Shown here: positions 11,921-51,227 of the stretch, piece by piece
How positions within the stretch are numbered: the stretch's first letter is position 1
Layout of the letters: every line of letters starts with the position of its first letter
Assembly (NCBI RefSeq): GCF_902713615.1
Contig: NC_052165.1
Location: 6,606,784-6,670,783 of the forward strand
Reading direction: 5' to 3'
Length of the DNA: 64,000 nt
DNA from: Scyliorhinus canicula
Lineage: Eukaryota
Notes under the pieces: generated by a model
The model's database searches: none
The model's input: only the letters and a program-made list of their open reading frames with translations
Told to the model about the DNA's origin: nothing
Program-made: the position numbers and the translations under genes

Positions 11921-12543
11921 TAGCAGCCCTAAATGAGGGCTCTAAATAAAATATATCACATGACTTACAAGAGTCCATTCACACTCATCTGGTGAAATAT
12001 GAATATGTGCTCCAAGCTGACTTTGAAACCTCTTGCCTTGTTAGTTCTAATTCATCTCTTTTATCTCTCACAGCTGCTGCAAGTGTCCTCAGGAGCTAAT
12101 GCCAGAGGAAGACAGTCCTCAGAGGAGGTCACACACTGCAGGGAAACAACATCCCATCACTCACGTGCGCTCTCCACTGGCTCAGATACACCTGGGTGGG
12201 GCACCAAAGGAAGCTAGTTGAGTTGTCACATAAAGAGGCATACATCACGTTGTGAGCAGGGATTGATGACAGAGTGCAGTTTCCTACCTACAGGCAAACA
12301 GTGCAGTTTCCTGCCTATAGGCTGTGGTAAACCACTGTTGCACCTACATTAGGTGATGTATGGTAGGACCTGTACTACAGGTACGTCGGTAGTGCCTGCC
12401 TGCTGGTTCCGCCCAGTAGGCGGGGTATAAATGTGTGTGTCCTCCATGCTGCAGCCATTTCATCAGCTGCTGTGGGAGGCCACACATCTTAGAGCAATAA
12501 AGCCTCAGTTGTATTCAACTCTTATCTTTGTGCAATTGATCGT

Positions 12544-15341
12544 TGGTCAGTGAGGAGAGTGAATCTCCTGCCTACCAGGTAATGCCTCCAATGCCGCACA
12601 GCTTCAATGATAGCTTGGGCCTCTTTTTCGACGGATGAGTGCCGAATTTCTGAGGATGAAGGGTGCGGGAAAAGAATGCCACGGGTCTGCCTGCCTGATT
12701 GAGGGTGGCGGCTAGGGCGACGTCTGATGCTTCGCTCTCTACTTCAAAGGGCAGTGTCTCCTCTGCTGCGTGCATCCCGGCCTTGGCGATATCGGCTCTG
12801 ATACGGGCGAATGCCTGTTGTGCCTCGGCCGTCGGGGAAAATGGGTGGAGTGTATGAGTGGACGGGCTTTGTCCGCATAGTTTGGGACCCACTGGGCGCA
12901 GTATGAAAAGAACCCCAGGCAGCGTTTGAGGGCCTTGGTGCAGAGGGGGAGCGGGAGCTCCATGAGGGGGCGCATGCGGTCGGGATCGGGCCCCAGAACT
13001 CCGTTCTGAAACCACATAGCCGAGGATGGCTAAGCAGGTGATGCTAAACCCGCACTTCTACTTGTTGTAGGTAAGGTTTAGGAGAGTGGCGGTGTGGAGA
13101 AATTTAGCAAGGTTGGCATCATGGTCCTGCTGATCATGGCCGCAGATGGTGACATTGTCTAGGTAGGGAAAGGTGGCCCGCAAACTGTACCGGTCGACCA
13201 TTCAGTCCATCTCCCTTTGGAAGACCAAGACCCGAAGGGACACCGAAGGGAACACTGAGGAAGTGATAGAGGCGACCGTCTGCCTCGACGGCAGTATATG
13301 GACGGTCCGATTTACGAATGGGGATCTGGTAATAGGCGGATTTGAGGTCTACCGTTGAGAAGACCCGGTACTGTGCAATCTGATTGACCATATCAGATAT
13401 GCGTGGGAGGGGGTACGCGTCGAGCTGCGTGTACCGATTGATGGTCTGGCTGTAGTCCATGACCATTCTGTGTTTCTCCCCAGTTTTAACTACTACCACT
13501 TGGGCTCTCCAGGTACTGTTGCTGGCCTCGATGATGCCTTACCGAAGCAGCCGCTGGACCTCAGATCTGATGAAGGTCCTGTCCTGGGCGCTGTACCGTC
13601 TGCTCCTGGTGGTGACGGATTTGCAATCCGGGGTTAGATTTGCGAAGAGGGAAGGTGGGTCGACCTTTAGTGTTGCGAGGCCGCACACAGTAAGGGGTGG
13701 TAGGGGCCCACTGAATTTCAGGGTTAGGCTCTGGAGGTTGCACTGGAAGTCCAGGCCGAGTAGTAGGGCAGCGCAGAGGTTAGGGAGGACGTAGAGGCGG
13801 AAGTCGCTGAACTCTACGCCCTGGATCATGAGTGTGACTGTACAGTACCCCCGGATCGCCGCGGAATGGGATCAGGGGACCAGGGAGATTCTTTGGTTGG
13901 CGGGGTGTACCATGAGGGAGCAGCGCCTGACCGTATCCGGGTGGATGAAGCTTTCGGTGCTCCCGGAGTCCAGCAGGCAAGAGGTCACGTCCATTGATTT
14001 TCACGCTGGTCGATGCGGTGGCCAGGCTGTGCGGACGAGACTGATCGATGGTCACTGAGGCGAATTGTGGTCGGTCATCGCTGGTGTAGGATGATGGGGA
14101 GCCCAAGGGGCACAGGTCCTGGAACGCTGGGAGTGCCCATGTGTTGTGGGGGAGACAAGATGGCGGCGCCTGAGGATCTTGAGGAGAACAAAATGGTGGT
14201 GTCCACTGGCCACATTTGCTCTGAGGGGGAGAAGATGGCGGCGCCCACTGGCTGCGGTGGTCCGCGGAGGTGAAGACCGTGGCACCCATTGTCCATATAC
14301 GAGGGGGGTGGGGAGATAGCAGCAACTGCGCGGGCCTGGCACACCGCGGCGAAGTGCCCCTTCTTTTTTGTTTTTTTTTTAAATTTAGAATATCCAATTC
14401 ATTTTTTCTAATTAAGGGGCAATTTAACGTGGCCAATCCACCTAACCTGCACATCTTTGGGTTGTGGGGGTGAAACCCACGCAGACACGGGGAGAATGTG
14501 CAAACTCCTCACAGACAGTGACCCAGGGCCGGGATTCGAACCCGGGTCCTCAGCGCCGTAGGCAGCAATGCTAACCACTGTGCCCCCGTGCCGCCGAAGT
14601 GTCCCTTCTTACCGCAAGCCTTACAAAGGGCAGCGCGGGCCGGGCAGCGCTGGCGGGGGTGTTTCTGTTGCCTGCAAAAGTAACATCGGGGACCCCCGGG
14701 GTTTGCTGGCTGGCACGTGGCGCAGGCGTATTGGCTGGGTAAGGCCCCCACTGGGGTGGCCATCTGTGGGGTGCATGATGCGAAGGAGGGGTGGGTCGCA
14801 CGGCTGGGGGTGTAGGCCTGAATGTTGTTTGAGGCCACTGTCATAGAGAGCGCTAGCTTCTTTGTCTCTGCGAGATCGAGCGTGGCCCCTTCTAATAGTC
14901 GCTGGCGCATGAGGTCCAACCCAATCCCCGTAACAAAAGCGTCCCGCAGAAGGCGGTTAGAATGTTCCATGGCCATAACGGCCTGACAGTCACAGTCCCA
15001 GACGAGTGGGATTAGGGCCCGGCAGAACTCTTCTATGGACTCACCAGGAAGTTGAGAGCGAGTGGCGAGTACGTGCCTGGCGAAGAGCGTGTTCGTCTTC
15101 TGAGCGTAATTTTCTTTGAGAAGCTTCATGGCTTCGGCGTAGTTTGGCGCGTCCTGGATCAGCGGAAAGACGTTGGAGCTCAACCTTGAGAACAGTATCT
15201 GTATTTTCTGAGCCTCCAAGACAGGACTGGCGCCGAGTTGATGTACTCCTCGAAACAAGCTAGCCAGTGCTGAAAGTTCCCTTTGGTGTCGCTTGATTGC
15301 GGATCCAGCTGCAGGCGATCCAGCTTGAATCGGAGGTCCAC
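12544..15341 (-). pseudogene. Gypsy gag-pro-RT-RNaseH, frameshifted, integrase missing
   Basis: Gag RHVLATRSQLPGESIEEF with double Zn knuckle (CYFC..H..C, CKACGKKGHF); protease LLDSGS; RT DYSQTIN, DLKSAYYQ, YLDN; RNase H ASDVALAATLNQ. Truncated at TDQR. Confidence 0.9.
14366..14594 (-). mobile_element. A-tailed SINE inserted in Gypsy gag, with 16-bp TSD
   Basis: TSD CGAAGTGYCCCTTCTT at 14350-14365 and 14595-14610; T-run (poly-A tail) at 14366-14380. Confidence 0.92.
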
Positions 15342-15865
15342 CTTTTGAAAATCTTAGAGCCATAAATTGATGCACGATCAATTGCACAAAGATGAGGGTT
15401 GAATACAACTGAGGCTTTATTGCTCGAAGATGTGTGGCCTCCCGCAGCAGCTGGTGAAATGGCTGCAGCATGGAGGACACACACATCTTAGTGCAATAAA
15501 GCCTCAGTTGTACTCAACTCTCGTCTTTGTGCAATTGACCGTGCATCACAGGTACACTGTGCAGAGTTTTCTAGCTACAGGCACGGGACACCCGGATCTC
15601 TGCTCACTGAGATTCGGGGTCGCATCATCAAAGGAGACTGTTCTAGAGCAGCAGCAACAGATTTGTGACGTGTTAACAGCGTTTCCAACCGCATTTCATC
15701 TGCGTTGGGAGAGAACCTCGTGAGCCCATCACCAGCATGAGCGCCATGATGTCTCAGGCCTATACATTCAGAGAAGACATGGCCACCTGCAAGGAGTGTC
15801 TGGCAGGGCAGTCCCCTGAGCGCTTGTCACTTCTCTCCAATGGCTTGCACGTTTACACTGCCATC

Positions 15866-16163
15866 TGTGGTGAATGTAATATATATATATATATGATAAT
15901 TCACACTGTCTTTGTAAGCGCAGTAGCGCTATCCTACCATTAGGGGGAGTAGCTCTGGGAGTACTCAGGAACTTGTACTGGGCTCCACCCTTGGCTCCGC
16001 CCATGACTCCTCCCCCTAGTGCTGCTGTATAAATACCCTTGTCGAGAGTCAGCCTGAGTTCACTAAGGGTTCGTCAACGGGTAACAGGCTGGCTCTGTAG
16101 TAAGTCGATTAAAGCCTAGATTCATATCGGAAACACGTGTCTGGTGAATTGATGGTTCCATCA
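15866..16163 (+). mobile_element. solo LTR (TGTGGT...CATCA Gypsy lineage)
   Basis: TG...CA ends, perfect 5-bp TSD CCATC, TATAAA 16028, ATTAAA 16108. Confidence 0.92.
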
Positions 16164-16581
16164 CCATCTTAAGTGGGCTGGAAGAGAGCTTCGCCCCGGC
16201 AGTCCAGCTGCTCACTGAAGTACAGTAAAGTTCACCTGGCCCTTGCGTAACAGAGACGGATGTCCGGTGCCACGGGCAGTTTGCCACCAGGCTGCTATTT
16301 GTTTGCACTCTTCCTGGGGTCTTTTTACTCACTGTCCACCAGCAGCTGAGCGCCCCAAGCATCCCCTAGTCCTGTAGACCCCTGACGGCAAAGAGCTCCT
16401 TAGTTATTTTTCTCCAGGAGTTGGTTACCCTGGGAACACTGCCCTGGATTAGTTACAGCATTCCTGAATGATTCCGTCCCAGGTATCCTTGGCAGCTATT
16501 GTGTAGCGACAATGGCCCACTCCACATCCTCCTGCTTGAAGTCTCGTCTTGCCCACCTCTTTCTCCTCCTGAAGATGCAAA

Positions 16582-50376: not shown

Positions 50377-50384
50377 TTATCTTT

Positions 50385-50540
50385 ATAGGTCTGACAGGAT
50401 CTGTGGAGAGAGAAGGGGGCTGACGTTTCAAATCTGGATGACGCACGAGTCATCCAGTCTCGGAACGTGAAACGCTAATGCTACTGATATTGTTCAGTAT
50501 TTCTGTTTCTGTTTCGGATTCCAGCATCCGCAGTAATTTC
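50385..50540. mobile_element. Penelope-like terminal fragment
   Basis: TTCCAGCATCCGCAGTAATTT and CTGTGGAGAGAG motifs. Confidence 0.6.
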
Positions 50541-50962
50541 CTTGTATCTTTATAGGTTTACAATTATGTTTTTCTTCAATGATTAAACTGCACCAGAATT
50601 GCACAAATGACAGAATACCAATTGAAAATAGACAGAGGGGTACATTTTCCAATCCAGCCCGTCACGGGAAATGTCGCGGGCAGGACTGACAATTTAATGG
50701 ACCATTAGAAGGACCTTTGACTTCGGGTCGGAATTTCCAGGTCCCGGGCGAGCAGGACCAGAACATTCTCCGCGGAATTCTCCCATCCCGTCCGCAGCAG
50801 GTTTAGTGGCCGGCAGGAGCGGAGGATCTGACCCGATCCAAAAAGTCGGAAACCTGCCGGAGCAAAATCAGATTGCAATTTTCCCAATAGCGGGTTAATG
50901 GCGAGTCAGTCTTTCCGCTGATGGGTGGCATCAATGCCATGTGATGATATGGGCTCCCTGGT

Positions 50963-51227
50963 TGATGCACGATCAATCACTACTGGAACGAAGGAGTAGT
51001 CCGAATTGAAGGCTTTAATCTACAAGGTGTTTCCCCAGCAGCTCGAGTACAGAAAGAAGAATGGCTGCTGGGAAACACAGGTTCTTATACCCTGCCTCAT
51101 TGGGCGGAGCTACCTTATGTCTGGACTAATGAAAAGGCAAACAGTTGGGCCAATGAGCAGTGAGCTTTCTCCACCAATGGTAGCTCACATTCCCAGGTAC
51201 CGTAGTACCTCTAGTCATACTACCACA
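50963..51227 (-). mobile_element. solo LTR (TGTGGT...CATCA lineage)
   Basis: Perfect TSD CTGGT; minus-strand TATAAG and ATTAAA. Confidence 0.92.

Follow-up and report, generated by a model that had tools for sequence, protein, structure and literature searches.

This study asked whether the stem-loop that recurs between the TATA box and the poly(A) signal in four diverged long terminal repeats (LTRs) of Scyliorhinus canicula is a real structure, and what it might do for the elements that carry it. The window, that is, the whole stretch of DNA analysed, comprises 64,000 nucleotides of contig NC_052165.1. A sequence-only reading had placed four LTRs with paired arms in it, and all were located where that reading had put them. 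LTR A (12323..12543, forward strand) forms the left end of a rearranged element; matches covered query positions 1-221, and its last bases are swapped at the junction to antisense RNase H sequence. On the same strand, its sequence contains a GC box (12409-12414), a TATA box (12426-12431), a left arm (12433..12455), and a right arm (12466..12487). The other three, each flanked by a 5-bp target duplication, are solo LTRs. LTR B (15866..16163, forward; TATA box at 16028, ATTAAA at 16108-16113) carries its arms at 16045-16056 and 16085-16096, and LTR C (34145..34404, forward; TATA box at 34305, ATTAAA at 34366-34371) at about 34310-34333 and 34339-34360. The arms of C were unlisted by the repeat scan and were located by folding; relative to its family, this copy has lost 9 nt of the loop and 17 nt of U5. 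LTR D lies on the reverse strand (50963..51227; TATA box at 51089-51084, ATTAAA at 51019-51014), and the repeat scan and folding placed its left arm at 51078-51064 and its right arm at 51042-51027. The four had been said to share only their termini, a GC box, TATAA, and AWTAAAGCC; this requires amendment for B and C, which also share matches of 23 and 20 nt. All four LTRs are members of one clade.

Judged by their sequence, the elements are classified as Ty3/Gypsy LTR retrotransposons. The pol order PR-RT-RNase H-IN was found in full in four relatives and RT-RH-IN in one family B copy, and TG..CA LTR pairs, a polypurine tract, and a short target duplication were present. No chromodomain was detected when five proteins were scanned, the precomputed domain annotations of 120 hits contained none, and no relatives were found among viral contigs. 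The elements presumably resemble the Mag lineage or other non-chromovirus animal Ty3/Gypsy elements (Jule, SURL, Cigr-1, and MolGy), which we take to share short LTRs, a length of 4.4-5 kb, the PR-RT-RH-IN order, and aquatic animal hosts.

Folding against shuffled LTRs had been named beforehand as one of the tests that could refute the hairpin, and the results revealed that the hairpin segment folds better than its shuffles. For this comparison, 210 copies were grouped into 29 clusters, of which five were dropped for indels; the hairpin segment reached z < -2 in 17 of the remaining 24 family representatives, which are not independent draws because the families are related. Control segments reached this value in 5/24 and 2/24 (two U3 segments) and in 2/24 (U5; Wilcoxon p <= 2e-4). 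Between the TATA box and the poly(A) signal, the window copies gave z scores of -2.95 (A), -0.64 (B), -2.47 (C), and -2.65 (D); at -0.64, copy B alone is not above chance, and the trimmed segment of its family representative gave -3.14. The hairpin is real. Four loci, one per family, yielded no Rfam match at the gathering score.

The proposal that pairing persists while the arm letters differ between families was borne out by a partner test and by covariation in the A and D types. An arm's own partner outperformed partners from the same group in 31 of 39 cases, a result reached in 0 of 20000 within-group permutations. In the A type, 84% of cells were paired and 5/20 pairs were altered on both sides; the number of cells with a both-side change was reached in 3/500 shuffles and the number of pairs so altered in 68/500. 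The D type showed both-side changes in 5/9 pairs. The arms thus co-vary in the two most diverged groups, and covariation was not significant in groups B, C, and E (p 0.09-0.67). Pooled MAFFT alignments across groups misplaced the loop and were left out of these pair counts. A bias toward G.U pairs, considered as proof of an RNA-level fold, was dropped, since G.U (43 versus 26 A.C; 62% versus 58% in shuffles) did not exceed composition. These findings make it quite likely that selection for pairing keeps the arms, at either the RNA or the DNA level.

The rearranged A element bears on a functionless origin, in which template switching or fold-back during reverse transcription makes and keeps the inverted repeat. 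It contains a broken and 3'-truncated gag-PR-RT-RNase H region (12544..15340, reverse strand) whose orientation is opposite to that of its outer LTR ends, and the adjoining copy of left arm, loop, right arm, and U5 (15368-15486, reverse) folds back at the hairpin base (15480-15486) and continues as plus-strand U5 to 15548 (whole feature 15368..15548). This junction is what such a by-product predicts, and the absence of a G.U excess and the weak covariation in B and C also agree with it. However, base fold-back occurred once among all loci examined, none of the 210 copies had freshly perfected arms (perfect match of at least 15 nt), and single-pair compensations are retained together with bulges. 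The geometry from the TATA box to the stretch that pairs with the primer-binding site (PBS) likewise stays constant across groups with unrelated arm letters, and we regard a by-product as improbable.

The same element illustrates a second pairing, which the sequence-only reading had noted as a leader duplex without recognising its probable role. Its PBS position (15351..15367, reverse strand) consists of one spacer base and 16 nt, 15 of them complementary to 12486..12501 on the forward strand, a stretch whose last letters are AATAAA (12496-12501); the tRNA-type start TGG is absent there. In general, the primer-binding position is complementary to 12-16 nt of the element's own LTR that end in AWUAAA. 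Among normal 5' junctions, 116/128 showed no more than one mismatch to the own LTR over 12 nt, with letters that vary from family to family. Junctions of this kind between LTR and leader number at least 18,000 in the genome. The same duplex occurred in 17 non-identical distant elements among 80 metagenome loci selected for at least 12 bp. The reading that best fits these sequence relationships is a primer/PBS duplex for self-priming, in which case the right arm would belong to the RNA primer. Fold-back junctions suggest where the primer ends. Of 48 junctions lacking an intact LTR upstream, only 11 qualified as fold-backs, and 10 of the 11 leave within 0-1 nt of the base after AWTAAA. By analogy with Tf1, RNase H would probably make this cut directly behind the hexamer, in LTR A after 12501.

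The other end of the putative primer was read from 199 pattern-matched aberrant genomic junctions, in which an inverted copy of the primer region follows the LTR end. The PBS-pairing stretch does not appear to be the RNA 5' terminus, as the copies extend about 30-40 nt further to TATA+30..33, in a search whose pattern was blind to copies stopping at that stretch. Among 83 measurable inverted copies, 36 ended at TATA+28..34, 40 earlier, and 4 within the 21 left-arm positions; the ends pile up at TATA+30..33, with a second peak at +38..42. After shared partner sites were collapsed, 24/65 ended at TATA+28..34 and 2/65 in the left arm. Every LTR with a visible start was a 5' LTR (68/68), and 66/85 ran on into element-internal sequence. 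An Inr-like motif, picked after the data were seen, lies at TATA+31..34 in 20/24 representatives (16 YCA[G/T]T and 4 YCCTT). From where the inverted copies end, we infer that the RNA, and with it the primer, begins at about A12457 (TATA+32, +/-2 nt, forward strand), which would leave the left arm in U3 at about -24 to -2 and the right arm in R, adjoining the PBS-pairing stretch. The corresponding starts would lie at about 16059 in B and 34336 in C, to which 14 start-mapping junctions belong; none belong to family D. These junctions thus lend indirect support to the earlier assignment of an Inr start, which puts the left arm in U3 and its partner in R. Stalling is not fully separable from the template end, because the copies have their edge where the hairpin has its top. 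RNA reads from four runs over one C and one A LTR showed no start or end peaks and read-through-like coverage across U3.

These observations also bear on a view without self-priming, which limits the leader duplex to silencing of the 5' poly(A) signal and takes the junctions for DNA-level template switches at the inverted repeat. The duplex does mask the hexamer, and the inverted copies differ from their own LTR by 5.6%, a divergence that age alone would explain and that self-templating would allow. A DNA template, however, explains neither the edge at TATA+30..33 nor the exact post-hexamer departures with their varied landing points. Furthermore, no tRNA-type PBS start, judged by its first letters, was seen in the junctions read, and the duplex is kept in distant elements with a non-canonical hexamer (6/13 families), and we regard this view as very unlikely, the least probable of all. 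We consider it very unlikely that the arms act in DNA, either at the promoter around the start or in single-stranded cDNA. Sense and antisense strands fold about equally, with no strand signal in z (p 0.13), and the loop begins at the proposed +1, as such a role would allow. Nevertheless, arms with 16% unpaired cells around an 8-30 nt loop are unlikely to extrude as a cruciform, and in cDNA they should, being imperfect, lose out to the perfect duplex of primer and copy.

Self-priming is the reading we favour. It is highly likely that Pol II would start near TATA+32, leaving the left arm in U3, that the stretch ending in AWUAAA would pair with the leader, and that a cut right after the hexamer would release a 5' piece of about 45-54 nt that primes minus-strand DNA. 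The leader pairing would at the same time mask the 5' poly(A) signal, and folding of 23 families gave an unpaired fraction of 0.13 for the 5' hexamer within the duplex. This half of the suggested two-state switch, in which the duplex and the hairpin distinguish the two LTR copies, therefore found support in folding; exposure of AAUAAA by the hairpin itself did not. AAUAAA was unpaired at 0.61 in native sequence, and shuffling the left arm gave 0.65 (p 0.21). Folding revealed no effect of the hairpin on accessibility of the hexamer, the PBS-pairing stretch, or the acceptor; exposure of AAUAAA and shielding of the 3' copy of the PBS-pairing stretch were rejected as its functions. Pairing of the right arm with the gag start was rejected as a general second state, being no better than pairing with downstream windows (13/23, p 0.38) and strong only in two A-type families.

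With one arm assigned to U3, hairpin formation would probably be confined to the 3' end of the RNA. Closure of the left arm on the right arm in the 3' LTR would fold out about 55 nt of GC-rich sequence. UGUA motifs of U3, otherwise 105-175 nt from the hexamer, would then lie at about 50-120 nt, and the primer tail's second copy would be sequestered. TGTA is enriched in U3 (30 versus 7.9 expected; reverse complement 7 versus 5.1), whereas distant relatives showed no such enrichment (12 versus 10.0). The motif also occurs downstream of the start in 17/24 families, which makes a spacer less needed. We rate this role above the other functions considered but propose it only tentatively, at somewhat less than even chances. 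PMC2645353 suggests a similar role for HIV TAR, namely to space the poly(A) site and a U3 element upstream. The whole model, in which a Ty3/Gypsy clade self-primes with its own 5' RNA and the hairpin folds only at the 3' end, appears to us evenly balanced between right and wrong.

The same pairing could instead act as a 5'-3' tether: the right arm, free as the primer tail, would find its left-arm partner at the distant 3' end of its own or a co-packaged RNA. Such a tether would hold the short strong-stop DNA (about 50 nt) near its landing site, and the local hairpin would be this pairing in cis. In 35/39 representatives, the right arm stops beside the PBS duplex, 12-20 nt short of the hexamer end, and with a cut behind AWUAAA, the first jump would have no more to use than what lies between there and the poly(A) site. 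Distant relatives, which lack a TATA box at the same distance, also lack the hairpin (0/17 with z < -2). Ty1 offers a parallel, as described in PMC3681743: CYC5 adjoins the PBS duplex, and its complement CYC3 lies near the RNA 3' end. Ty1, however, is a tRNA-primed copia element, whereas the LTR contains both partners in the present case, which lets them pair as a local hairpin too. This local 3' hairpin should outcompete pairing over a 4-kb range (opening cost 19.6 versus 12.9 kcal/mol), and cis and trans pairing give the same sequence signal in our tests. We consider the tether unlikely, and slightly more doubtful still is a scheme in which a non-chromovirus Gypsy clade of vertebrates is primed by a long capped RNA of its own, cut exactly behind its poly(A) signal, while capture of the primer tail by the left arm in U3 circularises the genome and guides the first jump.

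Comparison with known systems places these proposals. In Tf1/Tf2 of Schizosaccharomyces pombe and the Tf1/sushi chromoviruses, the PBS is likewise complementary to the own LTR, and in the Tf1 group the primer is cut from the RNA 5' end and copied into plus-strand DNA, as reported in PMC7175516, PMC11042837, and PMC4600332; Tf1 cDNA retains the primer copy (PMC11042837). The Tf1 primer is the first 11 nt and pairs entirely with the PBS, whereas only the last 12-16 nt of the primer proposed here would do so; this primer would also end in the poly(A) hexamer, with the complement of its tail in U3, and no chromodomain was found. HIV-1 TAR and poly(A) hairpins similarly place structure between promoter and AAUAAA and occlude AAUAAA by pairing (PMC2645353). 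TAR is contained entirely within R and folds at the two RNA ends alike; by contrast, one arm here would lie in U3, a layout with both arms downstream of +1 was not found, and AAUAAA would be occluded by the PBS duplex. No publication on the hairpin or on self-priming in this clade was found in a search that left subscription journals and Repbase uncovered, so an earlier description is possible.

Self-priming is described as proven experimentally for fission-yeast Tf1 and elsewhere as predicted or implicated. New here are the junctions with an inverted copy of the poly(A)-signal region after the LTR end, of which about 200 record both primer ends in a vertebrate genome. Reading such junctions provides a cheap general map of start sites and primer cuts for silent retroelements from an assembly alone. 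The hairpin's own job is something we infer. A priming duplex that hides the 5' signal is one suggested solution to the old problem of polyadenylation in the 3' LTR only. If the doubtful capture scheme were true, a single hexamer would mark the primer end in the 5' LTR and act as poly(A) signal in the 3' LTR; genomic copying errors, in their hundreds, would map both ends of the primer without bench work.

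The LTRs of families A to D lie at window positions 12323-12543 (A, plus strand), 15866-16163 (B, plus), 34145-34404 (C, plus), and 50963-51227 (D, minus); all but A are solo LTRs flanked by 5-bp target duplications. First-look searches of the 4.2-Gb genome returned 3218 (A), 744 (B), 2470 (C), and 3630 (D) candidates. Full-length copies measured approximately 4.4-5.0 kb and exhibited the pol order PR-RT-RNase H-IN, and a domain scan of their proteins revealed no chromodomain; the elements are therefore non-chromovirus Ty3/Gypsy retrotransposons. Their closest named protein relatives were in cartilaginous fishes and a sea anemone. 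The A element (12323-15548) has plus-strand LTR ends and an inverted, truncated interior; a fold-back at the base of the hairpin forms its right junction, the single such case among all loci gathered, and 3 of 5 target duplication positions match. A separate LTR element occupies 42007-48705 on the minus strand, with repeat blocks 97% and 91% alike and integrase preceding RT and RNase H, an order that we take to fit Gmr1-like elements. Tandem repeat arrays (18232-19870, 32149-33580, and 38880-39830; units of 9-18, 25, and 18 nt) and dispersed tRNA-derived SINE copies were also present.

The sequence-only reading had described an inverted repeat between the TATA box and the poly(A) signal AWTAAA of each LTR. 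A repeat scan and folding confirmed this observation and bore out the arm positions in all four (folding z: A, -2.95; B, -0.64; C, -2.47; D, -2.65). We then analyzed 210 LTR copies in 29 clusters, using 24 and leaving out 5 in which the analyzed segment carried indels. The segment from the TATA box to the poly(A) region folded better than shuffled LTRs, with z < -2 in 17/24 (mean, -2.60), compared with 5/24 and 2/24 for two U3 control segments and 2/24 for U5. The TATA-to-hexamer length fell into two classes among the cluster representatives, 72-78 and 85-86 nt, the 10 additional nucleotides falling within the loop, on the 3' side of the inferred start. The loop TGTA was invariant in 8/8 D-type representatives (alignment A5, columns 39-42).

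The earlier claim that pairing persists while the arms diverge held for the D and A groups but not significantly for B, C, and E. In 31 of 39 natural representatives, pairing of the left arm was stronger with the right arm of the same LTR than with right arms of other group members. Within-group permutation of the arms in these 39 reached the observed value 0 times in 20000 rounds, a signal coming from group D (0 of 5000) and group A (p 0.012). In an ungapped alignment of 11 A-type copies, 84% of cells paired and both sides changed in 5/20 pairs; shuffles matched the cells with two-sided change in 3 of 500 cases and the number of changed pairs in 68 of 500. Two-sided change occurred in 5/9 D-type pairs. 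That the inverted repeat is a by-product appears quite improbable. No copy (0/210) carried a perfect arm match of at least 15 nt, and Rfam yielded no family match for the hairpin loci. Sense and antisense folding did not differ (p 0.13), and G.U pairs in the arms were not enriched over composition; these two results are compatible with pairing at either the RNA or the DNA level, and action of the arms as DNA was considered very unlikely.

Every normal 5' LTR was followed by one A and then by the reverse complement of 12-16 nt of LTR ending in AWTAAA, the PBS-pairing stretch. The match to the element's own LTR had 0-1 mismatch in 12 nt at 116/128 5' junctions, with letters differing among families. 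Two patterns identified 7267 and 10999 genome junctions, compared with 2 and 1 for reversed controls. Covariation in this duplex may be partly due to primer copying into the PBS instead of selection. Folding of 23 families agreed with the leader duplex proposed for the 5' end: its pairing probability was 0.86, and the hexamer hidden there was unpaired at 0.13. The first U5 bases can pair with GGU near the U5 end, lengthening the PBS helix in several families.

Aberrant junctions were informative about both primer ends. In locus L025, the 5' LTR is followed by an inverted copy of the PBS-pairing stretch, right arm, and loop, ending at the equivalent of A12457, the Inr-like A taken in the sequence-only reading as the RNA start. 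Three patterns identified 111, 84, and 4 such junctions (199 total; reversed controls, 0), of which 164 were fetched: 96 had an intact upstream LTR and a copy stopping before U3 (locatable TATA in 85), 20 had an intact LTR and a copy extending through U3, and 48 lacked an intact upstream LTR. After one duplicate and one misfiled case were removed from the 85, copies in the remaining 83 ended at TATA+28..34 (28 to 34 nt downstream of the TATA box) in 36, earlier (35-64) in 40, within the 21 left-arm positions in 4, and beyond the TATA box in 3. The main copy edge, at TATA+28..34, also coincides with the hairpin top, and the search patterns are blind to copies stopping before the right arm. Collapsing shared partner sites (n=65) gave 24, 36, 2, and 3, respectively. 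The mapped junctions were mostly A type; 7/14 from B/C ended at TATA+30-34, and the pattern search yielded zero start-mapping junctions for D. In 20/24 families, an Inr-like motif lies at TATA+31..34, consistent with the copy edge. LTRs with a visible start were flanked by host sequence rather than a polypurine tract in 68/68 cases, and the sequence beyond the inverted copy (n=85) was sense element in 55, antisense element in 11, and neither in 19. RNA reads exhibited neither start peaks nor end peaks. The simplest reading is that plus-strand strong-stop DNA was extended along the RNA primer as far as the primer 5' end before mis-annealing; Tf1 cDNA reportedly retains a primer copy (PMC11042837). 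The A runs after the primer-copy end in L435, L492, and L390 (about TATA+33) could reflect slippage at the template end or be partner-templated.

Among the 48 junctions lacking an intact upstream LTR, 11 carried antisense U5 from the LTR end, which fell 0 nt (8), 1 nt (2), or 3 nt (1) short of the base that follows AWTAAA; the landing points were at distances of 7 to 46 nt from the end of the LTR. These stops fit minus-strand strong-stop DNA that would end at a cut directly after the hexamer. In the LTRs of loci L401, L403, L410, L430, L502, and L526, the hexamer is immediately followed by an 8-nt inverted insert, which corresponds to the primer-DNA junction.

In the likely mechanism, Pol II starts near TATA+32, yielding an RNA 5' end with the loop, right arm, and PBS-pairing stretch but without the left arm. 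The PBS-pairing stretch would pair with the leader, concealing the hexamer, and a cut after AWUAAA would release a primer of 45 nt (54 nt in the longer class). The 3' end would have both arms, and the hairpin could close there. In types A and D, the top of the right arm holds a six-base palindrome (12464-12469 and 51043-51048, respectively) that, unpaired in the 5' RNA, could initiate dimerization. The earlier interpretation of a two-state switch was partly supported: the left arm would be absent from the 5' RNA and the leader duplex hides the hexamer, but in folding the hairpin itself left AAUAAA access unchanged (unpaired, 0.61 vs 0.65), as it did access to the PBS-pairing stretch and the next 20 nt.

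The closed hairpin tied up the right arm and left +1..+8 more open (20/24, folding). A 5'-3' tether formed by the arms, comparable to that of Ty1 (PMC3681743), seems rather unlikely. Tested across 23 families, a second pairing between gag and the right arm proved not to be general. In the A-type families L006 and L329, the arm and the gag start, within the first 80 nt following the PBS, form a strong duplex (about -27 kcal/mol). U3 contained 30 TGTA motifs vs 7.9 expected, in 18/24 families (reverse complement, 7 vs 5.1), approximately 90-175 nt from the hexamer end. UGUA is a CFIm site. By folding out approximately 55 nt, the hairpin would bring the U3 UGUA motifs closer to the hexamer, and we tentatively regard such a spacer as a possible role, at somewhat less than an even chance. 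A similar spacing role has been suggested for HIV TAR (PMC2645353). Against this role, TGTA also occurred downstream of the start in 17/24 families and was not enriched in distant relatives.

The proposed mechanism resembles the self-priming of Tf1 (PMC7175516, PMC4600332, PMC6317226); in contrast to that group, the proposed shark primer is not a PBS-length 5' end and the shark elements have no chromodomain. The hairpin differs from TAR in having one arm upstream of +1. The available text of an LTR survey (PMC3601003) ties long-R conservation to stem-loops and describes none across the start site. Outside Repbase notes and subscription journals, our literature search found no paper on the hairpin or on clade-level self-priming.

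Among 80 metagenome loci, the same duplex occurred in 17 non-identical elements of about 13 families. In these 17, neither the hairpin (mean z +0.17; 0/17 below -2) nor a TATA box at a comparable distance was found. ACC or GCC directly followed the PBS-pairing stretch in 13/13 of the distant families (L191-L270), and the canonical hexamer was missing from that stretch in 6/13; L194 has a separate AATAAA within U5. The presence of the duplex in distant elements without the hairpin indicates that the leader duplex is of old origin and that the shark families gained the hairpin in addition.
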